A stretch of DNA of 64,000 bases from Actinomycetes bacterium (GCA_021798985.1 JAJZBI010000021.1:8573-72572); one strand, 5' to 3'; shown: positions 4,548-51,802, numbered from the stretch's first letter. Translations and numbers: made by a program. The notes: generated by a model from the sequence alone, not told the origin.

Positions 4548-4899
4548 GTGCGCTCCTTTTCCCGGGCCGCGGTCCTCGCCCGAGGAGGGCGGAGTTGCGC
4601 GGCACGGCCGGCCCACTGCCGTCGCCGCGTCCGGGCCGCGCGATGGGGCCCGCTCTTCGTGCCGCACCGTAGCAGCGCGCTGCGGCGGCGTCGATTGAGG
4701 TCGGAACATTGCGCCGCAAAGGCGCTAGATGAAAGGATCGCTCGCGTCACGAAAGATGCCAGGAGGTTGCGATGACATCGGCGGCATTGCGTGGCAGGTC
4801 TTCGCTTGGTTCCGATCGAAGCGACCTGTCGCGTCACCAAAGGACCCAAGACGTCATCGCGCGGCGATCTGGCGCACCGGCAACGACCGGGGCGATGCG

Positions 4900-5949
4900 A
4901 TGACGCCGGAGCGGCGCGTCTACATCACGAGCGCGCTGGCCGCGCCGGGCGGCCCGAGCGATGGCGTCTACGGCTTTGTCCAAGACCCCGCGACCGGTGC
5001 GCTCTCGCCCATCGGCCCGCACGCGGCGGTCGAAGGGGCGAGCTTTGTCAGCCGCGACCGCACCGGCACCCATCTGTACACGTGCCGAGCCCGACCCGAC
5101 GCCGGCGCGGCGGCCTTTGCGGTGAACAACGACGGCAGTCTCGAGGCGCTCGGCGAGGTGCGCAGCGGCGCCGCGGGGGCATGCCATGTCTGCGTGGATG
5201 ACGCTTCGCGCTTCTTGTTCACCGCGCACTACGCGAGCGGGCATCTGAGCGTGCACCGACTGACGGCCAGCGGGGCGATCGCCGAGCGCTGTGATTTGGT
5301 GCTGCCGGAGGGCGCTGGACCGAACGCCGAGCGCCAGGAGCACGCGCACGCGCACTTCTGCTGGCCGATCCCCGGCACGGACCTGGTGATGCTGGTCGAC
5401 CTCGGCACGGACACATTGTGGTCCTATCGCGTCGACGCCGATACCGGTCGCCTCGAGCTCGTCGCGGCGAACCAGGCACCGTCCGGCTCGGGGCCCCGCC
5501 ACCTGCGCCCTTTTGGGATCGGGGCGCTCCTCGTCACCGGCGAGCTCGACTCGACGCTGATGGCGTTCCAATTCGATCGGACGGCGGGAACCGCGCGCCT
5601 GGTCGAGGCGCTGCCGGCCTCGGTGCGCGCCGGCGCGGGCGACAACGCGCCATCGGAGCTCGCGCTCAGCCGGGACGGGCGCTTTTGCTATGTCGCCAAC
5701 CGCGGGCCGGACACCGTGGCGGTCTTCTCGCTCGAGGGGGGATCGCCCGCCCGCGTCGGCGAGGTCCCTTGCGGCGGGGAGATCCCGCGGCACCTGGCGG
5801 TCATCGGGGACTTCCTCTACGTGGCCAACCAAGAGTCCGGCAGCGTCGCGGTCTTCGCGCTCGGCGATGACGGCATTCCGCAGCCCACCGGCTTGGACGT
5901 GCCGCTCGAGCGGCCCTTTTGCGTGCGGGCCCTGCCAGTCGCGCCGTGA
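4900..5949 (+). CDS. Beta-propeller lactonase (6-phosphogluconolactonase/YbhE family)
   Basis: AHYASG, HAHAH, DLGTD, GSGPRH, YVANRG, PRH repeats. Confidence 0.9.
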   Translation: MTPERRVYITSALAAPGGPSDGVYGFVQDPATGALSPIGPHAAVEGASFVSRDRTGTHLYTCRARPDAGAAAFAVNNDGSLEALGEVRSGAAGACHVCVDDASRFLFTAHYASGHLSVHRLTASGAIAERCDLVLPEGAGPNAERQEHAHAHFCWPIPGTDLVMLVDLGTDTLWSYRVDADTGRLELVAANQAPSGSGPRHLRPFGIGALLVTGELDSTLMAFQFDRTAGTARLVEALPASVRAGAGDNAPSELALSRDGRFCYVANRGPDTVAVFSLEGGSPARVGEVPCGGEIPRHLAVIGDFLYVANQESGSVAVFALGDDGIPQPTGLDVPLERPFCVRALPVAP

Positions 5950-43858: not shown

Positions 43859-44661
43859 GCCCGGCGGACGCGTCCCCGCTCGTCTTTGAGGTCTGTGCGG
43901 GCTCGCTGGCGGCCCTCGAGGCCGCCCTGGCGGCGGGGGCAGCACGCGTCGAGCTGTGCGCCGGGCTTTCGCTCGGCGGCCTGACGCCGAGCCTCGGCGC
44001 CATCCGGTCCGCCGTCGCCCGCTGCGCCCGACGGGCCAGGCTGCACGTCCTCATCCGCCCGCGGCCGGGCGACTACGTCTACTCGCCCGGCGAGGTCGAG
44101 GTGATGGAGGCCGACGTGGTGCTCGCCAAGGCTGCCGGGGCCGACGGCGTGGTGATCGGCGCGCTCGATCAACGCGCCAGGGTCGATGTCGCCACGTGCC
44201 GGCGCCTCGTCGCGCTCGCCCGTCCGTTGAGCGTGACCTTCCACCGCGCCTTCGATGCGACGTCCGATCCACTGGCGAGCCTTGCCGAGGTCGCGGCGCT
44301 CGGGGTCGACCGCCTCCTCAGCTCCGGTGGTGCCGCCGATGCGCTGGCCGGCGCCGACGTGCTGGCCGAGCTCGTGCGGCGTGCCGGCGACGAGCTCGTG
44401 GTGATGGCGGGGGGCGGCATCACCGAGGCGAACGTGGCCGACGTCGTCCGGCGCGCCAAGGTGCGCGAGCTCCACTTCTCTGGCCGTCCGGCGTCCTCGG
44501 GCGGGGCGCCGAGCATGCCCGATCGCCTGGCGGCGCGCCTCGAGGCCATCATGGCGAGCGCCCGACGCGGCGACGACGCCGAGCGCGGGGGGCGAGTTGG
44601 TGCGCCGCTGGTCGGGCCGGCCGGCGGCCAGGACGCAAAGGGGCCGACATGGGCCAGCTGA
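43855..44661 (+). CDS. cutC: CutC-family TIM barrel protein
   Basis: EVC, RVELC, GGLTPS, LIRPRPGDY, TFHRAFD, LSSGG, ELHFS. Confidence 0.9.
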   Translation: MSPADASPLVFEVCAGSLAALEAALAAGAARVELCAGLSLGGLTPSLGAIRSAVARCARRARLHVLIRPRPGDYVYSPGEVEVMEADVVLAKAAGADGVVIGALDQRARVDVATCRRLVALARPLSVTFHRAFDATSDPLASLAEVAALGVDRLLSSGGAADALAGADVLAELVRRAGDELVVMAGGGITEANVADVVRRAKVRELHFSGRPASSGGAPSMPDRLAARLEAIMASARRGDDAERGGRVGAPLVGPAGGQDAKGPTWAS

Positions 44662-45878
44662 GCACGCCCGGACGGGCGACCTCGTCCCTGTATTGCTTTG
44701 GTACGGACCTGTTGGACGAGGGCATCGACGTCGTGCTCGAGCGCGCCAGCACGGCCGGGCTCGATGGGATCACGATGGCGGCGAAGTACCACGCCGTCAG
44801 CGACCTGTATCCCCATAACCCGCGGCGCCGACAGGCGAGCGTGGCGCCGGGCTGCTACTTCGTCCCCGAGCCACGGCGCTATGGCGAGATCGTGCCCGCG
44901 CCCCACGAGCTGTTGGACGGGCGCGACCTCCTCGCCGAGCTGTGCGCGCTCGCTCCCCGTCACGGTCTTGGCGTCTCGGCGTGGGCGGTGGTGCTGCACG
45001 ACGACGACGCGGCGCCGGGCACCCCCGGGCTTGGCCGCAACTGCTTTGGCGAGGAGGTGGCGGGCACCCTGTGCCCCTCGAGTGACGCGGGGCGCGACCT
45101 CGTGGTCGGCCTCGTCACCGACCTGTGCCGCTACGGCCTCGTGGCGATCCGGCTGGAGTCCGTGCACTTCCACGGCTTCGGGCATGGTCATCACCACGAG
45201 CGCCTCCTCGAGGACTACGGCGAGCTCGCCCGCTTCGTCCTCGGCCTGTGCTTTTGTGCGGCCTGCTGTGGGCGCGCCGATGCCGCCGGGCTCGACGGTG
45301 ACGAGCTCGCGACGCGCGCCCGTGCCTACGTCGAAGCGGTGCCGTCGGGATCCGTCGCGCCGCAACCCTTCTCCAACGACGCCCTGGCCGCAGCGTGCGG
45401 GGAGGCCGCCATCGCGTTCTTGGCGCTGCGCAGCGCGGTCGTCGCCGGCCTCGTCGCCGAGGTGGTGCCGATCGCGTCGGGCAGACAGATCACCCTCAGC
45501 GTCATCGACCCGTCGATCGCCACGGCGTCTTACGCGACCGGCGAGCTCGGACCCCCGAGTCCGCTCGGGGGGCTCACGCTCGGCATCGATGCGGTCGGCC
45601 TCGCCGCGAGTGGCGCTCGGGTCGAGGTCACGGGATATCTGCGCGACCCGAACGCGCTCGACCAAGCGCTCTCGGCCGGTGCGCTCGGGGCGCGAGATGG
45701 CCAGGCCGATCCACGCCTGGCGCTGATCTTGCGGCCCGGCGCGCCCGACGGGGCCGACGCGGGGAGCCTTGCCGCCAAGGTGGCAGTCGCCCGCCACCAC
45801 GCCGTCGAGGTCAACTTCTACAACTACGGCCTGTACCGTCTCGATGCACTCGAGCGCATCGCGTGGGCCCTAGCGTGA
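44649..45878 (+). CDS. Uncharacterised glycoside-hydrolase-like TIM barrel with His/Cys clusters
   Basis: AAKYH, PHNP, TLCPSS, IRLES, HGHHHE, CFCAAC; in the operon between cutC and nagB. Confidence 0.65.
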   Translation: MGQLSTPGRATSSLYCFGTDLLDEGIDVVLERASTAGLDGITMAAKYHAVSDLYPHNPRRRQASVAPGCYFVPEPRRYGEIVPAPHELLDGRDLLAELCALAPRHGLGVSAWAVVLHDDDAAPGTPGLGRNCFGEEVAGTLCPSSDAGRDLVVGLVTDLCRYGLVAIRLESVHFHGFGHGHHHERLLEDYGELARFVLGLCFCAACCGRADAAGLDGDELATRARAYVEAVPSGSVAPQPFSNDALAAACGEAAIAFLALRSAVVAGLVAEVVPIASGRQITLSVIDPSIATASYATGELGPPSPLGGLTLGIDAVGLAASGARVEVTGYLRDPNALDQALSAGALGARDGQADPRLALILRPGAPDGADAGSLAAKVAVARHHAVEVNFYNYGLYRLDALERIAWALA

Positions 45879-45959
45879 CGGCGCAGCGGACCGGCCGGCA
45901 TGGCAGCGTGGCCGAAGCGATCGATGGGACATGATGCGGCGACGCAAGGAAGGAAGGCG

Positions 45960-46727
45960 ATGAGCGCGGCAGCGACCAGGCGGAGCTATGGGAGCTTGGA
46001 GGTGGTCATCCACCCCGACCTCGACGACCTCGCCGATGCGGCGTGCGCCGAGGCCGTGGCAGCCATCGCGGCTGACTTCGCCCGCCGGGGCGAGGCGGCG
46101 ATCGTGCTCGCGACGGGCAACTCCCAGCTCGGCTTCTTGGAGCGACTCTGTGCCGCCGATCTGGACTGGTCGCGCATCTCGATCTTGCACCTCGATGAGT
46201 ACGTCGGCATCGACGCGGACCATCCCGCCAGCTTTCGCCGCTATCTGCGCGAGCACGTCGTCGACAAGGTGGCCCCGAAGGCCTTCTACGGCCTTGGCGG
46301 GGACGCCGCGGACCTCTCCGCCGAGTGCGCCCGCTACCGCGCCCTGCTTAAGGCGTGCGATCCGCAGCTGTGTGTGATGGGGGTGGGGGAGAACGGCCAC
46401 CTCGCCTTCAACGACCCGCCGGCCGACTTTTCGACCACTGCGGTCGTGCACGAGGTTGAGCTCGATCGCGCCTGTCGCCTGCAGCAGGTGGGCGAGGGGC
46501 ATTTCCCCGACTTCGACTCAGTGCCGACACGGGCGCTCTCGCTCACCGTGCCCGCCATGTTGTCGATGCCGCACCTCGTCGCCATCGCGCCCGAGCAGCG
46601 CAAGGCCCAGGTGATCGCCACGGCCCTCGACGGGCCGATCTCGCCGGACTGCCCGGCCTCGGCGCTGCGCCAGGCCGCCGGCGCCGTGCTGCATCTCGAC
46701 GAGGCATCCGCCAGCCGGCTCGCCTGA
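45960..46727 (+). CDS. nagB: Glucosamine-6-phosphate deaminase/isomerase (NagB-like)
   Basis: LATGNSQ, LDEYVG, GVGENGHLAFNDP. Confidence 0.82.
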   Translation: MSAAATRRSYGSLEVVIHPDLDDLADAACAEAVAAIAADFARRGEAAIVLATGNSQLGFLERLCAADLDWSRISILHLDEYVGIDADHPASFRRYLREHVVDKVAPKAFYGLGGDAADLSAECARYRALLKACDPQLCVMGVGENGHLAFNDPPADFSTTAVVHEVELDRACRLQQVGEGHFPDFDSVPTRALSLTVPAMLSMPHLVAIAPEQRKAQVIATALDGPISPDCPASALRQAAGAVLHLDEASASRLA

Positions 46728-46867
46728 GCACGCGTTTGGGAATCTCGCGGCGCGAGCAAACCCTCAACAGGCCTGCCGTGGCCAGCGTCGCGACCCGGTG
46801 CCCGCGCCCCGGGGCGCTCCGCCCGGCGCCGGTGGCGGCGCCGGCGCCCCAAGGAGGGAGCCGACTC

Positions 46868-48121
46868 GTGAAGCCGGAAGAGATCGCCAAGCTCGTCCAC
46901 GTCGGGCGTCCCGACGCCCCCTATGGCGCCCGGCGGCTCGCCCGCTGCTACGACATCGCCGATCTCGCCCGCGTGGCGCGCCGTCGCCTGCCCTCGGGCG
47001 CCGCCGGCTACCTCGACGGTGGCGGGGAGGGGGAGTGGTCGCTTCGGCGCAACCGGCTCGCCTTCGGTGAGCTCGAGCTGATCCCCCGGGCGCTGCGCGA
47101 CGTGAGCGAGGTCGACACGACGACGACGGTGCTCGGCTGCAACCTGCCCGCCCCGATCATCTGCTCGCCCGTTGGCGGACCGCGGATGTTCCACCATGAG
47201 GGGGAGCTGGCGGTCGCCCGGGCCGTTGCGCACGCGAAGATCGCCTACGGCGTCTCGACGCTTGCGACCCAGCCGCTCGAGGCGGTCGCCGAGGCGGCCG
47301 GGGACGCGCCGGTCTGGTTCCAGCTCTATTTGTGGGGCGATCGCTCGGACGCGAGAGCGCTCGTGCGGCGCGCCAAGCGTGCGGGCTATCGCGCCTTGCT
47401 GTTGAGCATCGACTGCGCGGTGCGCAGCGAGCGCGACCGGGAGCTGCACCGCGGGATCGCGTTGCCCACCCCCCAGCTCGACCTGAAGACGCTGCTCGAC
47501 GGCGCCATCCATCCCGATTGGTCCTGGCACTTCCTCACCAGCCCGGCGCTCGGATTCCCGAACCTGTCGATGAGCGGGCCGAGTTCGCGCGACAAGCTCG
47601 AGCAGATGTTCGACGGCACGCTCACCTGGGAGGACCTCGAGTGGATCCGAGAGGAGTGGGACGGCCCGATCGCGTTGAAGGGGGTGCTGCGTGTCGATGA
47701 GGCCCGTGAGGCGGTCGCGCGCGGCCTCGACGCCGTGATCGTCTCCAACCACGGCGGGCGCCAGCTGGACCGCGTGCCGGCCACCTTGGAGGTCCTCCCC
47801 GAGATCGTCGAGGCCGTCGGGGATGACATCGAGGTGCTCTTTGACTCCGGGGTGCGCCGGGGCAGCGACATCGTCACCGCGCTGTGCCTCGGCGCGAAGG
47901 CGGTGCTCGTGGGCCGCGCCCACCTCTACGGCCTCGCCGCGGCGGGCGAGGCGGGGGTGCGCCACGCCATCGACATCTTGGAGCGCGAGCTCAAGATGGC
48001 GATGGCGCTGTGCGGGGCGCGCGCCTTGGGCGACCTCGACCGCTCGCTGCTGCGCCCCGCGGCTCCGCCCGATCTCGACCCCACCCACGCCAGGGCCGTG
48101 CAGGCGGCGATCTCCAGTTAG
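46868..48121 (+). CDS. lldD: FMN-dependent alpha-hydroxy-acid dehydrogenase (L-lactate dehydrogenase-like)
   Basis: WFQLY, LKG, SNHGGRQLD, DSGVRRG, GRAHLYGL. Confidence 0.85.
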   Translation: MKPEEIAKLVHVGRPDAPYGARRLARCYDIADLARVARRRLPSGAAGYLDGGGEGEWSLRRNRLAFGELELIPRALRDVSEVDTTTTVLGCNLPAPIICSPVGGPRMFHHEGELAVARAVAHAKIAYGVSTLATQPLEAVAEAAGDAPVWFQLYLWGDRSDARALVRRAKRAGYRALLLSIDCAVRSERDRELHRGIALPTPQLDLKTLLDGAIHPDWSWHFLTSPALGFPNLSMSGPSSRDKLEQMFDGTLTWEDLEWIREEWDGPIALKGVLRVDEAREAVARGLDAVIVSNHGGRQLDRVPATLEVLPEIVEAVGDDIEVLFDSGVRRGSDIVTALCLGAKAVLVGRAHLYGLAAAGEAGVRHAIDILERELKMAMALCGARALGDLDRSLLRPAAPPDLDPTHARAVQAAISS

Positions 48122-48906
48122 GGCGAGCGATCGGTGCCGGCGATGTCGTCGGCGAGCCCCGGCCGGCCCGCGAGCAAGCCACCGTCAACCGCCAAGACGG
48201 CGCCGGTGATCCATCTCGCCTCGTCGGAGCACAAAAAGGCGGCCGCTGCGGCGATGTCCTCGGGGGTCCCGACGCGCCCGAGCGGATAGATCCCCGAGAG
48301 CTGCTCGAACAGGTCGGGCTGGCGCGCAAGGCGAGCGTCCCAGGCGGGCGTGGCGACGGTGCCGGGCGCGATCAGGTTGCAGCGGATGCCGGTGGGGCCA
48401 TAGCGCACGGCGATCGCTTGGGTGAGGCTGACGAGCCCGCCCTTGGCGGCCGAATAGGCCTCATTGCCGAGGAACTGGAAGGCGTTCACCGAGCCGATGT
48501 TGCAGATCACGCCCGATCGCCGCGGGGCCATCGTGGCGAGTGCCGCCTTGGCGCAGCGGAACGGGCCGCCCAAGGTCACCTCGAGGTCGCGGGCCCATTG
48601 CTCCTCGCTGAGCTCGGCGAGCGTGGCGTCGGTGCACGAGGCGGCGTTGTTGACGAGCACATCCAGCGGACCGAGGCGCCGCTCGAGGGCCGCGAGGCCC
48701 GCCGCCACGCTGTTGGGGTCGGCGACATCGAGGCGGATCCCGACGCAGCGGCTCGGGAGGCCCGCGGCCAGCGCCTCGGCGGCCTCGAGGTCGAGGTCGC
48801 CGATCGCGACCGCGGCGCCCTCACTCGACAGCCGGGCCGCGATCGCGGCACCGATCCCCGAGGCCCCGCCCGTCACGAGCACCACCTTTCGCGAAAAGCG
48901 GCTCAT
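48118..48906 (-). CDS. Short-chain dehydrogenase/reductase
   Basis: TGGASGIG, NNA, YSAAK. Confidence 0.93.
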   Translation of the reverse strand: MSRFSRKVVLVTGGASGIGAAIAARLSSEGAAVAIGDLDLEAAEALAAGLPSRCVGIRLDVADPNSVAAGLAALERRLGPLDVLVNNAASCTDATLAELSEEQWARDLEVTLGGPFRCAKAALATMAPRRSGVICNIGSVNAFQFLGNEAYSAAKGGLVSLTQAIAVRYGPTGIRCNLIAPGTVATPAWDARLARQPDLFEQLSGIYPLGRVGTPEDIAAAAAFLCSDEARWITGAVLAVDGGLLAGRPGLADDIAGTDRSP

Positions 48907-50246
48907 CGACCGCCTCGCTCATAGCGCGGCGGGGTGCCGATCGCCAGGCGCGCGAAGTCCTCGGCCGCCTGCAGCGCCTCCGCCCAGGGGCGGCGCAGCT
49001 CGCTTGGGGGTCGGGCAACCAGGCGGCGCTGGGCGGCGGTTGCCTCGATCCACGGCGGCAGCGGCTCGGGGGGGAGCGGCTCCAAGACGACACCGCTCGC
49101 GATCGTCGCCACGTTGACAAGCAGCTGATCGACCCGGCGCGGCACGAGGTAGGTGTCGAAGAGGTCGACTTCGACCCGCTCGAGGCGAAAGATCGCGACA
49201 TCCGCGCGGCGACCCAGCGCGAGCGCCCCCCACTGATCGGCCCGCTTCGCAACGCGCGCCGGGGTTAGCGTCATCGCGGCGATGACTTGCTCGAGCGGCA
49301 TCCCGAGCGCGAGCAGCTTGCTCGCGCACGTCGGCAGGTCGAAGGCGGGACCGAGCACCGAGCGCAGGTGGAGGTCGGAGGAGATGACGTCGGGCCACTC
49401 GCCCCGTGCCGCCATCTGTTCGGCGACGGCGTAGCTGAACGCCCCGCTGCCGTGGCCGAGGTCCAACAGCACGCCCCGTTCGCGCGCCGATGCTGCCGCA
49501 GGACGGAGCGCCCCGTGCTCGTCCAGCAGCGCCATCGACTGGCCGGTGCAGGCATGGGTGACGAGGTCGCCCGGTGAGAGCAACCCGAGCACCTCGTCGA
49601 TCTCGGGCGGCCCGCCGCCGATGTGGACCATCACCGGAACGCCAGCGGCTTGCGCAACCGAGCGGGCCTGGCGCAGCGGCTCGAGCCCAGCGGGTCCGAC
49701 GGCGTGGTGGTCGAGGCGGCTCTTCACCCCGACGAGCACGCCGGGGTGCGCGGCCAGCACCTCGGCGCACAGCGCCGCGTCGCAGTCGGACGCGGATCTC
49801 GCCTCGCCGGTCTCGGTGACGAGCCCCCGGCTCGAGATGTTGAGGAAGGCGGCGAGGCCAAGCGGGCTGGTGGCGATCTGGTCGAGGAGGGCACCGGCGT
49901 TGTAGGCACCGGCCGAGCCGGCATCGACGAAGCAGGTGACCCCGCTCCGCCACGCGACTGGCTCGGGGCGCAGGCTCCAAAAGCCCCCGCCGGCATAGAC
50001 GTGGGTATGCAGGTCGACGAGCCCGGGGGTCACGAGACAGCCCCGCGCGTCGATCACCGCCGCCCCGTTGGGCTCGATCCGAGGAGCGATGGCGGCGATG
50101 CGGCCGTCGGCGATGGCGACGTCGTATGGCCCACGCCGTCCGCTCGCCGGATCGATCACCTCCCCGCCGCTGACCACGAGGTCGAAGCCCGGGGGCCCCT
50201 CGCTGTTCGGGGCGGGCGAGACCAGGGACTTTGGGGGAGCGCTCAA
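48903..50246 (-). CDS. Amidohydrolase/deacetylase-family metallohydrolase (EF_0837/PRK09237-like)
   Basis: PGLVDLHTH, GVTCFVDAGSAG, GVK, MVHIG, GDLVTH, DLGHG, ISSD. Confidence 0.85.
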   Translation of the reverse strand: MSAPPKSLVSPAPNSEGPPGFDLVVSGGEVIDPASGRRGPYDVAIADGRIAAIAPRIEPNGAAVIDARGCLVTPGLVDLHTHVYAGGGFWSLRPEPVAWRSGVTCFVDAGSAGAYNAGALLDQIATSPLGLAAFLNISSRGLVTETGEARSASDCDAALCAEVLAAHPGVLVGVKSRLDHHAVGPAGLEPLRQARSVAQAAGVPVMVHIGGGPPEIDEVLGLLSPGDLVTHACTGQSMALLDEHGALRPAAASARERGVLLDLGHGSGAFSYAVAEQMAARGEWPDVISSDLHLRSVLGPAFDLPTCASKLLALGMPLEQVIAAMTLTPARVAKRADQWGALALGRRADVAIFRLERVEVDLFDTYLVPRRVDQLLVNVATIASGVVLEPLPPEPLPPWIEATAAQRRLVARPPSELRRPWAEALQAAEDFARLAIGTPPRYERGGR

Positions 50247-51499
50247 TGGAAGAAGGTCTCGATCTCGTCGATCACGACGTCGTCCTCGTCGACGAGCAGC
50301 ACCTTCCGCCAGCGGTCGAAGGCCGTGCAGGGATGCGACAGCCCGAACGCCAGCCGGTCGCCCACCATGAGTGGCGGCGCGCCGGGGTCCAAGACGAGGT
50401 AGCCGTGCTGGTCATCGAGCGCGCGCAGGTGCGCGGCGCTGTAGGGCTCGCGCTCGGTGCCCTCGGCGGCGACGCGGGCGAGCGGGATCGGAAGGCCGAG
50501 GTCGAAGGAGGTGTCGCGCTTTCCGAGCCCGACGATCGCGAGGTCCGGCTCAGGGCGCGAGAGCACCTCGGCCCACAGCTCGAGGGCCGGCCAGAGCTCG
50601 TCGGGACCACCGGTGCCGGCGAGCGGCGAGTTGGTGGCGTACACCCCGTGGTCATGGGTGAGGTAGCAGCCCGAGCGCACGACGAGGCGGACCTCGTGGC
50701 CGGCATAGTCGGCGCCGGGACCGAGCTTGTCGGCGACGCGGTCGAAGTACTTGCTTCCACCTGCCGAGACGAGAATCGGCCCGTTTTGCGCGAACAGGCC
50801 TGCCTCAGCCAGGCGCACGGCGAGCGAACGGAGCGCGTCGAGGAAGGCGTCGACGGCGTCGAGCGAGCCGGGCGAGCGATCAGAGGCCAGGGCGCCCTCG
50901 AAGCCCTCCACTCCGACGAGCTCGAGATGCTCGCTCGCGTTCACCGCGTCAGCGGCAGCGACGGCGGCCTCCGCCGTTCGCGCTCCGGCGCGGCGCCCGT
51001 TGGCGCCGAGCTCGACGAGAACGCCGAGTCGGCCGGTGAAGCCGGCCTCCGCAAGGCCGGCGTCGAGGCGTGCCGTGCCCGCTGGAGAATCCACCAGGCA
51101 GTTCAGGGTGCGGCCCGGGGCGCGGAGCGCGGCGATCGTTGCCGCGTCCGGACGAGCGACGACCTCGTTGGCGATGAGGACGAAGGTCGCTCCGGCGTCG
51201 AAGGCAACCTGAGCCTGGGCGACGTTCGCCACGGTGATGCCGATCGCGCCGGCGGCGAGCTGGCGGCGGAACAACACGGGCGCCATCGTTGTCTTGCCGT
51301 GCGGAGCGAGGAGGAAGCCGCGCTCGGCGGCATAGGCTCGCATTACCGCGAGGTTGTGTTCGAGCGCGCGCTGACGCAGCGCCATGGCGGGCAGCGCGCA
51401 CTCGCCTGAGCTCACCGTCGATCCGATAGCGCCGATGCGCGCCGCGGACGACGCTATTGCGCGGCGCTCACGGACGGCGCGATCTCCGCTCAAGTCCAT
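50243..51499 (-). CDS. PLP fold-type III enzyme, D-serine dehydratase (DSD1)/D-threonine aldolase-like
   Basis: ALEHN, APHGKTTMAP (PLP Lys), GVEGFEG, SAGGS, RSGCY, GKRD, DQH, SHPCT. Confidence 0.88.
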   Translation of the reverse strand: MDLSGDRAVRERRAIASSAARIGAIGSTVSSGECALPAMALRQRALEHNLAVMRAYAAERGFLLAPHGKTTMAPVLFRRQLAAGAIGITVANVAQAQVAFDAGATFVLIANEVVARPDAATIAALRAPGRTLNCLVDSPAGTARLDAGLAEAGFTGRLGVLVELGANGRRAGARTAEAAVAAADAVNASEHLELVGVEGFEGALASDRSPGSLDAVDAFLDALRSLAVRLAEAGLFAQNGPILVSAGGSKYFDRVADKLGPGADYAGHEVRLVVRSGCYLTHDHGVYATNSPLAGTGGPDELWPALELWAEVLSRPEPDLAIVGLGKRDTSFDLGLPIPLARVAAEGTEREPYSAAHLRALDDQHGYLVLDPGAPPLMVGDRLAFGLSHPCTAFDRWRKVLLVDEDDVVIDEIETFFH

Positions 51500-51802
51500 G
51501 GTGTCCTGGCTCGCTCGACCCGTGGTGAGATCCCGACCTCGGGGAGTCCACCCAGCGCGCAGCCCAACATCACCGCTCGGAATCGCGAGGCGAGCAGGGA
51601 CATGGCACGGCGTGCTCACGCTGCACGTGATCAGGTGCGTGCGGTCCTGGCCACTGCGGCGCCAGGGCGCGCACGCGCGCAGGCTCGTTACCGGCACACG
51701 TCTGCACGACTGACGCGCGGATCGATGCTCGTCCTTGGTGGTGGCCGCGAGGGGGGCGGTGGCTCGCCGCAGGCGAGGGGACGAAGGCGGAGGCGTCGAC
51801 GA

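Follow-up and report, generated by a model that had tools for sequence, protein, structure and literature searches.

We analysed a 64,000-nt stretch of DNA from an Actinomycetes bacterium (GCA_021798985.1, JAJZBI010000021.1:8573-72572), hereafter the window, which lies on contig G000:C26 of a 3.76-Mb, 71-contig assembly and has a G+C content of 71%. The source is probably an uncultured member of the Acidimicrobiia, a placement suggested solely by an AH homologue that bears the name 'Acidimicrobiales bacterium'. Our subject is a trio of minus-strand genes encoding a pyridoxal 5'-phosphate (PLP) enzyme, an amidohydrolase (AH) and a short-chain dehydrogenase/reductase (SDR), which face a convergent plus-strand sugar-import operon and may together form an oxidative route for N-acetylated amino sugars. 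Genes were called from a listing of open reading frames combined with third-position G+C (GC3) analysis, families were assigned with Pfam and NCBIfam, and genome-wide searches covered the whole assembly. The trio and the gap before it are as follows.

50243..51499, minus strand: fold-type III PLP enzyme, OngC-like, 418 aa (Pfam D-ser_dehydrat and Ala_racemase_N)
48903..50246, minus strand: COG3964 / NF006689 amidohydrolase (AH), 447 aa, TTG start (NCBIfam NF006689)
48118..48906, minus strand: classical SDR oxidoreductase, 262 aa (Pfam adh_short_C2)
51500..51802, minus strand: 303-bp intergenic gap 5' of the trio, after the stop of a menF-like gene; presumed to hold the trio's own promoter

The PLP gene starts with an ATG at 51499, which gives 418 aa; its frame is open to 51697, homologues align from about residue 20-28, and an AGGA precedes the start codon by 6-9 nt. 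Read directly, the PLP/AH junction ('...TTC CAT TGA GCG...') is a 4-bp TTGA overlap, with CAT-TGA on the TTG start of AH, and the AH/SDR junction ('...CGA TGA GCC...') is a 4-bp ATGA overlap with the ATG start of the SDR. Identical 4-bp overlaps occur in relatives (loci L036, L055 and L052-54). The trio is most likely one translationally coupled operon. The initial annotation had described three coupled genes with 4-bp overlaps facing an amino-sugar operon, and both the junctions and the Pfam/NCBIfam families bear out the layout, the facing operon being of the sugar-import type. At the other end, the SDR stop overlaps that of a convergent gene for an LldD-like 2-hydroxy-acid dehydrogenase (TTAG at 48118-48121), leaving zero intergenic space. 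We found no terminator-like hairpin between these two stops and no sigma-70-like consensus in the 51500-51802 gap, both by consensus scans that are uninformative for an actinobacterium of this G+C content. Beyond the gap, on the same strand upstream, lie genes for a menF-like isochorismate synthase and a ubiE/menG-like methyltransferase.

The PLP enzyme matched Pfam D-ser_dehydrat (1.6e-17) and Ala_racemase_N (1.4e-7), both above cut-off, and has the domains (PF01168 + PF14031), lysine and metal motif of the DSD1-like D-serine dehydratase/D-threonine aldolase superfamily. The metal motif of this superfamily is H-x-C in dehydratases and H-x-D in aldolases, as seen in the structures of DSD and D-THA-DH. 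In the PLP enzyme the C-terminal motif is SHPC (H-x-C), compared with SHVD in the aligned aldolase 4v15. Its best PDB match was 3gwq (9e-76), with D-threonine aldolases and BhcC far lower. We found 35.8% identity (blastp 1.4e-71) to OngC of the canonical ong cluster of Pseudoalteromonas sp. CF6-2, and the two proteins have in common the motifs PHGKTTM (with the catalytic lysine), RxGCYxTHD and SHPCxxFD(K/R)W. That cluster, from the plasmid/chromid collection, encodes a TonB receptor, the 415-aa deaminase, RpiR, a D-aminoacylase, RidA, a sodium/solute symporter (SSS) family transporter, a sugar kinase and a GH20 glycoside hydrolase (GH). In a maximum-likelihood tree, 20 PLP-family proteins formed one family (100/100), set apart by a long branch from the D-threonine aldolases; 3gwq clustered with a Ralstonia homologue and canonical OngC, and the window enzyme fell inside an actinobacterial clade of eight (99/98). 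By homology we assign the PLP enzyme to the OngC family, in a clade separate from canonical OngC, so that the tree does not settle strict orthology.

OngC belongs to a published pathway. In Pseudoalteromonas prydzensis ACAM 620, OngB deacetylates N-acetyl-glucosaminate (GlcNAc1A), OngC deaminates D-glucosaminate (GlcN1A) to 2-keto-3-deoxygluconate (KDG), OngD is a RidA protein and KdgK is the kinase (Jiang et al. 2022, PMC9537276). The conversion of GlcN1A to KDG by OngC was shown both in vitro and by knockout (PMC9537276). The initial annotation had cited a fold-type III PLP D-glucosaminate dehydratase from Pseudomonas; such a deaminase is documented in OngC of Pseudoalteromonas, and the Pseudomonas example is unconfirmed. 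Homologues of the PLP enzyme at 39-44% identity lie in three further ong-like clusters, which include kinases or aldolases for KDG, 2-keto-3-deoxygalactonate (KDGal) or 2-keto-3-deoxy-6-phosphogluconate (KDPG).

Tsukamurella: RidA, IclR, kinase / PLP enzyme, D-aminoacylase, KDPG aldolase, GntP
B. pseudomallei plasmid: PLP enzyme, D-aminoacylase, RidA, KDGal kinase, KDGal aldolase
Ralstonia: Eda, permease, D-aminoacylase, RpiR / PLP enzyme, KDG kinase

On the B. pseudomallei plasmid (L027, NZ_CP009155.1, 7872-12706), the genes for the OngC-like protein, D-aminoacylase, RidA, 2-dehydro-3-deoxygalactonokinase and 2-keto-3-deoxy-6-phosphogalactonate aldolase stand amid genes for a PL8 lyase, GH88, KduD and IolB. 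This suggests a galacto-configured version of the pathway, for N-acetyl-galactosaminate (GalNAc1A)-type substrates, tied to the breakdown of a glycosaminoglycan-like polymer. OngC-family genes on Agrobacterium pAt (L030) and in Azospirillum (L035) and Rhizobium (L032) adjoin RidA, a polar-amino-acid/sugar ATP-binding cassette (ABC) importer, LacI and a deacylase of the succinylglutamate-desuccinylase/aspartoacylase family; with this AstE/AspA-type deacylase, the number of unrelated deacylase families that accompany OngC-like PLP enzymes would rise to three. A Microbacterium 'amidohydrolase' that adjoins an OngC-like gene was considered as a COG3964 member and rejected, its similarity being confined to the N-terminus.

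AH scored 381.9 bits against NCBIfam NF006689 (PRK09237, equivalent to COG3964), above the cut-off of 371, and 263.6 bits against TIGR03583 (EF_0837), below the cut-off of 432.15. The description of AH as EF_0837-type in the initial annotation does not hold in the strict sense, membership being rejected on the TIGR03583 score; in the tree described below AH lies in a sister clade. Its PDB matches were 2ogj (Atu3266; 3.6e-62) and 8wzy (4.4e-62), along with EF0837 (2ics) and 8je0, and its binuclear metal site is complete, the HxH, Lys, His, His and Asp ligands aligning with those of Atu3266. OngB, by comparison, resembles D-aminoacylases and binds a single metal ion at a Cys/His/His site (Wang et al. 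2025, PMC12017989). AH and OngB are 34% identical over 120 N-terminal residues only. We rejected AH as an OngB on this limited match and on its COG3964 binuclear site, and found no OngB and no DgaE homologue anywhere in the source genome.

In a tree of 24 AH-family members, the window AH belonged to a 12-member clade (100/99) whose proteins come from Actinobacteria, Chloroflexi and Thermomicrobia and which is sister to the EF_0837/DgaE-linked and Atu3266/Rhizobium clades. An OngC-like PLP gene is adjacent to AH in 10 of these 12 members. Hence, the AH-PLP pairing is not due to chance. Neighbourhood analysis, which the initial annotation had proposed, also placed RidA, lactonases, GH3 and KdgK/Eda genes beside this clade; RidA is adjacent in L011, L017, L024 and L052. 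Representative neighbourhoods are as follows.

G038 (L011): luciferase-like oxidoreductase, RidA, PLP enzyme, AH; divergent SMP-30 lactonase; convergent PfkB kinase and KDPG aldolase
L019: PLP enzyme, AH, lactonase
L017: lactonase fragment, RidA, PLP enzyme, AH
L023: PLP enzyme and AH, convergent with a GH3/NagA-like/ABC operon
L024/25 (Herpetosiphonaceae): GH3, PLP enzyme, RidA, AH, further genes, SDR

In the sister clades, the Rhizobium orthologue of the Atu3266 group has no PLP lyase neighbour, and COG3964 genes stand beside a different kind of lyase in Klebsiella and Priestia. The Klebsiella order is AH (the same protein as PDB 8wzy), DgaE-family lyase, 2-keto-3-deoxygluconate-6-phosphate (KDGP) aldolase and lactonase; the Priestia order is AH, DgaE, KDGP aldolase, sugar kinase, GntR and GntP. 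DgaE and DgaF belong to the D-glucosaminate phosphotransferase-system pathway of Salmonella. The co-occurrence of COG3964 genes with such genes, noted in the initial annotation, is thus found in both organisms. In these EF_0837/DgaE/DgaF-type clusters, as in the window, COG3964 adjoins an ammonia-lyase for aminoaldonates or their 6-phosphates; a KDG(P) aldolase is also present, accompanied by a lactonase or by a kinase and GntP. They differ in the lyase, a SelA-like DgaE-family enzyme whose substrates are probably phosphorylated, whereas that of the window is fold-type III and OngC-like. The Priestia GntP is 48% identical to the permease of the Ralstonia ong-like cluster and 40% identical to that of Tsukamurella, which suggests the same substrate class. 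Our strongest argument is that COG3964 amidohydrolases are adjacent to two unrelated kinds of aminoaldonate lyase. Hence, they would deacetylate N-acetyl-aminoaldonates or their 6-phosphates, and AH is a predicted N-acetyl-aminoaldonate deacetylase. We found no report in the literature assigning COG3964 to aminoaldonate deacetylation and, to our knowledge and as far as a literature search showed, no physiological role has been assigned to COG3964 since 2013.

The AH clade is rare, with family members in 7 of 41 relatives' genomes and in 0 of 200 genomes of a phylum-wide sample at E<=1e-40. A search of genome contigs for loci related to AH gave a single match, from Acidobacteria and 24% identical. 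On one metagenome contig (L038, 5116-9920), the OngC-like gene by AH is broken up by transposase genes (Transposase_mut, DDE_3, rve_3), and AH and a homologue of the 409-aa protein described below are whole despite the split PLP gene.

The third gene of the trio encodes an SDR that matched Pfam adh_short_C2 (1e-61). Its translation has TGGASGIG, an acidic residue after beta2 (GDLD) and an intact YxxxK (YSAAK), and it is probably NAD-dependent. Its second-best NCBIfam model, the 'glucose 1-dehydrogenase' subfamily NF005559, gave 209.5 bits compared with a cut-off of 215, and several homologues at 52-56% identity carry the automatic name glucose 1-dehydrogenase. L036 (AH 78%, SDR 82% identity), L055 (AH 90%, SDR 87%) and the same-genus genome G002 keep both the gene order of the trio and its overlaps, and the trio is likewise collinear in a distant lineage, L052-54 (PLP enzyme 59%, AH 56%, SDR 59%). 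In that distant lineage it is flanked by a divergent RidA gene and a convergent ROK gene, with a MurQ-like SIS/NagA fusion nearby; the fusion adjoins the trio at L052 662-2794 and encodes 710 aa, with MurQ/GKRP-type SIS domains and a NagA-like amidohydrolase domain. The SDR orthologues, which are reciprocal best hits, also occur in L056-58, where they are transcribed away from an operon that encodes RidA, a homologue of the 409-aa protein and an OngB-type D-aminoacylase. Plasmid-borne SDR homologues (Streptomyces, Embleya) had no informative gene context. Since the SDR is collinear with the AH trios and also beside the OngB-type cluster of L056-58, it accompanies the pathway irrespective of the type of deacetylase. 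This pattern of conservation marks the SDR as a genuine part of the module that is inherited together with it.

What the SDR oxidises is less clear than its membership. N-acetylhexosamine 1-dehydrogenase (EC 1.1.1.240) and N-acylmannosamine 1-dehydrogenase (EC 1.1.1.233, itself an SDR) carry out NAD-dependent C1 oxidation of N-acetylhexosamines to aldonic acids, an activity that the window SDR may share. From its place in the module we infer that it is a candidate N-acetylhexosamine 1-dehydrogenase and the likeliest oxidant here. Alternatively, AH and the PLP enzyme could act as just described while the SDR works downstream or elsewhere, oxidising KDG (as KduD or a 2-keto-3-deoxy-acid 4-dehydrogenase would) or some other hydroxyl, and the aldonate is imported or made by the GFO/IDH/MocA oxidoreductases of the convergent operon. 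The neighbouring sugar-import operon is indeed headed by two GFO/IDH/MocA genes, the trio includes no lactonase, and the PDB matches of the SDR comprise gluconate 5-dehydrogenases, KduD-type enzymes and glucose dehydrogenases at similar E-values; moreover, an OngC-like gene of genome G020 shares one operon with an aldo-keto reductase (AKR) and a non-orthologous SDR. However, KduD-type models are absent from the 25 best NCBIfam matches of the SDR, among which the glucose 1-dehydrogenase subfamily ranks second, no partner of a KDG-oxidising branch (e.g. an FAH-type hydrolase) adjoins any trio, and lactonases recur by the relatives, which indicates that intracellular sugar oxidation occurs in this pathway family. 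We regard a downstream SDR as a minority possibility that deserves attention, and favour oxidation at C1.

Taken together, the trio would convert an N-acetylated 2-amino sugar of the N-acetylglucosamine (GlcNAc) or N-acetylgalactosamine (GalNAc) type to a 2-keto-3-deoxy-aldonate in the cytoplasm. In the least certain step, the NAD-type SDR would oxidise the N-acetylhexosamine at C1, and the lactone would open spontaneously or by a lactonase encoded elsewhere, giving GlcNAc1A or GalNAc1A. As its family and context suggest, AH would then remove the acetyl group from this N-acetyl-D-alpha-amino acid-like substrate, releasing acetate and D-glucosaminate or D-galactosaminate. By homology to the assayed enzyme, the OngC-like PLP enzyme would catalyse alpha,beta-elimination of the C3 hydroxyl, and hydrolysis of the enamine/imine, helped by a RidA encoded elsewhere, would yield KDG or KDGal and ammonia. 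KDG could reach central metabolism through a PfkB kinase and KDPG aldolase encoded on another contig, C46, or through the non-phosphorylative DHDPS (dihydrodipicolinate synthase)- and HpcH-type aldolases of the window. We give the complete sequence, from N-acetylhexosamine to N-acetyl-aminoaldonate (SDR), aminoaldonate (AH) and KDG (PLP enzyme), an even chance of being right. The AH and PLP steps, which the initial annotation had also proposed and comparative genomics supports, are rather likely as drawn; the SDR step is the weakest and stays tentative, somewhat short of even.

This logic, deacetylation of an N-acetyl-aminoaldonate followed by PLP-dependent deamination to KDG, is that of the ong pathway. 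The kind of pathway was thus already published in 2022; the novelty here lies in the use of a COG3964 deacetylase, in the attached dehydrogenase and in the phylogenetic setting. The window has an OngC-type PLP enzyme and lacks an OngB-type deacetylase, AH having a binuclear HxH/Lys/His/His/Asp site in contrast to the mononuclear Cys/His/His site of OngB. The window cluster also lacks the RidA, kinase, RpiR, SSS transporter, TonB receptor and GH20 genes of the ong cluster; RidA is found in the relatives of the trio, and a kinase with an aldolase in one of them. Nor does the source of GlcNAc1A correspond. In the ong pathway it is supplied by a lytic polysaccharide monooxygenase (LPMO), the GH20 enzyme OngA and dedicated transporters. 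The source genome has zero PF03067 (AA10 LPMO) matches, which leaves an LPMO origin of the substrate unsupported, and its GH20 gene lies only in a separate NagA/GntR cluster on C20. An SDR is attached to the trio instead, pointing to intracellular oxidation of the sugar. Hence, an intracellular origin of the aldonate is suggested by the lack of an AA10 LPMO, by the attached SDR and by relatives with lactonases or other oxidoreductases. The trio is probably an ong-pathway variant in which an unrelated amidohydrolase subfamily takes the place of OngB and the aldonate is formed intracellularly by a dehydrogenase, instead of extracellularly by an LPMO.

For the fate of KDG, the initial annotation had noted that the window encodes no KDG kinase and that aldolases of its first part could finish the route. 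We likewise found no KDG kinase in the window, and the aldolases are present, but they are not needed: elsewhere, the source genome encodes a PfkB kinase paired with a KDPG aldolase (Eda) at C46:21743-23262, and a RidA on C27. It also has a canonical amino-sugar cluster (G000:C20:3096-10597) with GH20, GntR, a NagA-like protein and a MurQ-like SIS protein. Hence, this organism has the usual phosphorylative route plus a putative oxidative one.

Several observations weigh against the proposed route. The trio itself lacks a transporter, lactonase, RidA or kinase. The SDR falls below every curated NCBIfam cut-off, its substrate cannot be read from its sequence, and it is absent in the relatives G038, L019, L023 and L037, which makes it dispensable for the AH-PLP pair; lactonases and other oxidoreductases are present there instead. 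The two GFO/IDH/MocA oxidoreductases of the neighbouring operon could equally oxidise the sugar. Some OngC-family members adjoin amino-acid-type ABC importers, in G017 (57% identical), Pantoea, Agrobacterium and Azospirillum; since aminoaldonates are chemically amino acids, this objection is weakened. The remaining two points concern substrates, those of OngC and those of Atu3266.

OngC, a fold-type III PLP enzyme, deaminates D-serine and D-threonine as well (PMC9537276). The module might therefore salvage or detoxify N-acyl-D-amino acids with a beta-hydroxyl (N-acetyl-D-serine, D-threonine, hydroxy-aspartate), with AH as the deacylase, the PLP enzyme as a D-serine/D-threonine dehydratase and the SDR acting on a side product. 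The DSD1-type domains of the PLP enzyme fit such a role, as do homologues in amino-acid ABC and RidA contexts and the weak N-acetyl-D-serine activity that Atu3266 is said to have. However, the neighbours of the AH clade are of the sugar type (lactonases, GH3, a NagZ/NagA operon, KdgK/Eda and the GH-like 409-aa partner), the sister clades adjoin KDGP aldolases and gluconate permeases, and the SDR would have no obvious role. We consider D-amino acid salvage unlikely and prefer aminoaldonate breakdown.

The COG3964 proteins Atu3266 and Oant2987 were reportedly described by Ornelas and colleagues in 2013; Atu3266 is said to prefer (R)-alpha-acyloxy acids and to be weak on N-acetyl-D-serine, so that its best in-vitro substrates are reportedly esters, not amides. 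These acyloxy acids have the same configuration at the alpha-carbon as GlcNAc1A, and we know of in-vitro ester substrates only, and of no physiological role, for Atu3266. AH might thus be an esterase for alpha-acyloxy acids, partnered with the LldD-like 2-hydroxy-acid dehydrogenase, with the PLP gene a mere neighbour. Atu3266 is the best PDB relative of AH, with the NF006689 model and the metal ligands in common, and the LldD-like gene ends 0 bp away, an arrangement kept in L055. Against this, AH and Atu3266 lie in different clades, AH-PLP pairing is kept in lineages without LldD (L011, L019, L023, L052), and in G002 LldD is internally deleted while AH and SDR are intact. An esterase role is very improbable, and deacetylation of an aminoaldonate remains our preferred function for AH.

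If that function is correct, N-acetyl-aminoaldonates would be a natural substrate for COG3964 amidohydrolases, which are widely misannotated as dihydroorotases or adenine deaminases. The deacetylase step of oxidised-amino-sugar breakdown would then have been invented at least twice, and three times counting the AstE/AspA-type deacylases with OngC-like genes in Rhizobiales. The ong-type pathway would extend from LPMO-bearing marine Gammaproteobacteria to uncultured soil or water Actinobacteria and Chloroflexi, whose version appears to oxidise the sugar intracellularly and would be a non-phosphorylative amino-sugar route. The SDR would provide a gene candidate for N-acetylhexosamine 1-dehydrogenase activity.

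The convergent plus-strand operon encodes two GFO/IDH/MocA oxidoreductases, a sugar-type ABC importer, an M81 peptidase, CutC and the proteins below.

44649..45878, plus strand: 409-aa protein, predicted GH-like TIM barrel, no Pfam match
45900..46727, plus strand: NagB/Pgl-family protein (Pfam Glucosamine_iso 1.2e-19; below all NCBIfam cut-offs)
46736..48121, plus strand: LldD-like flavin mononucleotide (FMN)-dependent 2-hydroxy-acid dehydrogenase (Pfam FMN_dh 4.2e-131), the last gene of the operon

We found 45 relatives of the 409-aa protein, all named 'hypothetical', with the invariant motifs ESxHF..HGHHHER, GLCFCxxC, LCPS and FYNYG. Its homologues adjoin COG3964 AH in L020-22 and L038 and lie between RidA and the OngB-type D-aminoacylase in L056-58 (L020 11236-12435, L038 11394-12632, L056 6321-7517). 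An AlphaFold model (predicted local distance difference test, pLDDT, 81.8; predicted template-modelling score, pTM, 0.85) is of good confidence and folds as a GH-like TIM barrel; its best structural matches are the PgaB C-terminal domain, Cwp19, GH35 and GH20. On this model, the protein may be a candidate new glycosidase family that feeds the aminoaldonate route in an OngA-like role. Because in L056-58 it stands where the PLP gene would be, flanked by the RidA and deacetylase genes, a PLP-independent deaminase was also considered, and was dropped because the fold favours a glycosidase. If the link holds, a 45-member, Pfam-less, GH-like family would be tied to oxidised-amino-sugar metabolism.

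The NagB-like protein is closest in the PDB to B. subtilis NagB (2bkv, 2.4e-31), with Pgl entries at ~1e-12, and would be a divergent glucosamine-6-phosphate deaminase or a lactonase. In a genome of the same family (L047, G020:C8, 7948-14357, minus strand), one operon encodes a sugar substrate-binding protein, a NagB/Pgl-like protein (40% identical to that of the window), an AKR, RidA, the non-orthologous SDR and the OngC-like PLP enzyme, with no deacetylase. This gene set has the look of an oxidative pathway for an amino sugar that carries no acetyl group. Hence, this operon would tie the NagB-like gene of the window to oxidative amino-sugar metabolism.

At L015 (G002:C58, 1052-1652), LldD-like matches cover only residues 3-169 and 415-455 of the window protein, and the gene appears internally deleted; the AH C-terminus, SDR, NagB-like, 409-aa and M81 genes beside it are intact. 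Hence, the LldD-like protein is not essential to the trio. Its position matters for a further reading, in which both convergent operons together would be an oxidative route for N-acetylmuramic acid (MurNAc) or muropeptide sugars. The 409-aa protein, with a fold like that of Cwp19, a peptidoglycan hydrolase, and of the PgaB C-terminal domain, and the M81 peptidase would free the sugar, the SDR would oxidise C1, and the COG3964 enzyme would deacetylate; the PLP enzyme would then eliminate the C3 lactyl ether rather than a hydroxyl, yielding lactate along with KDG and ammonia, and this lactate would be oxidised by the LldD-like enzyme. As hints, the gene for that enzyme lies directly against the trio, M81 is in the same operon, and the L052-54 locus has the MurQ-like SIS/NagA fusion and a beta-lactamase-fold gene. 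However, LldD-type enzymes are L-specific and the muramyl lactate is D, and the gene is decayed in the sister genome and missing from most relatives. We hold a MurNAc route to be a long shot; if correct, it would be an etherase-independent way of breaking the MurNAc ether bond.

The window opens with a dense sugar-acid island of about 23 kb, which encodes three enolase-superfamily dehydratases, a lactonase, an IlvD/Edd protein and the DHDPS- and HpcH-type aldolases mentioned above.

1-23300, first part of the island: thiamine pyrophosphate enzyme, AKR, enolase-superfamily protein, 7-bladed lactonase (4729-5949), malic enzyme, DHDPS-type aldolase, IlvD/Edd protein
1-23300, rest of the island: second enolase-superfamily protein with an AKR and an SDR, ABC importer, IclR, third enolase-superfamily protein, HpcH aldolase, xylose-isomerase-like TIM barrel, 3-hydroxyisobutyrate-dehydrogenase-like protein

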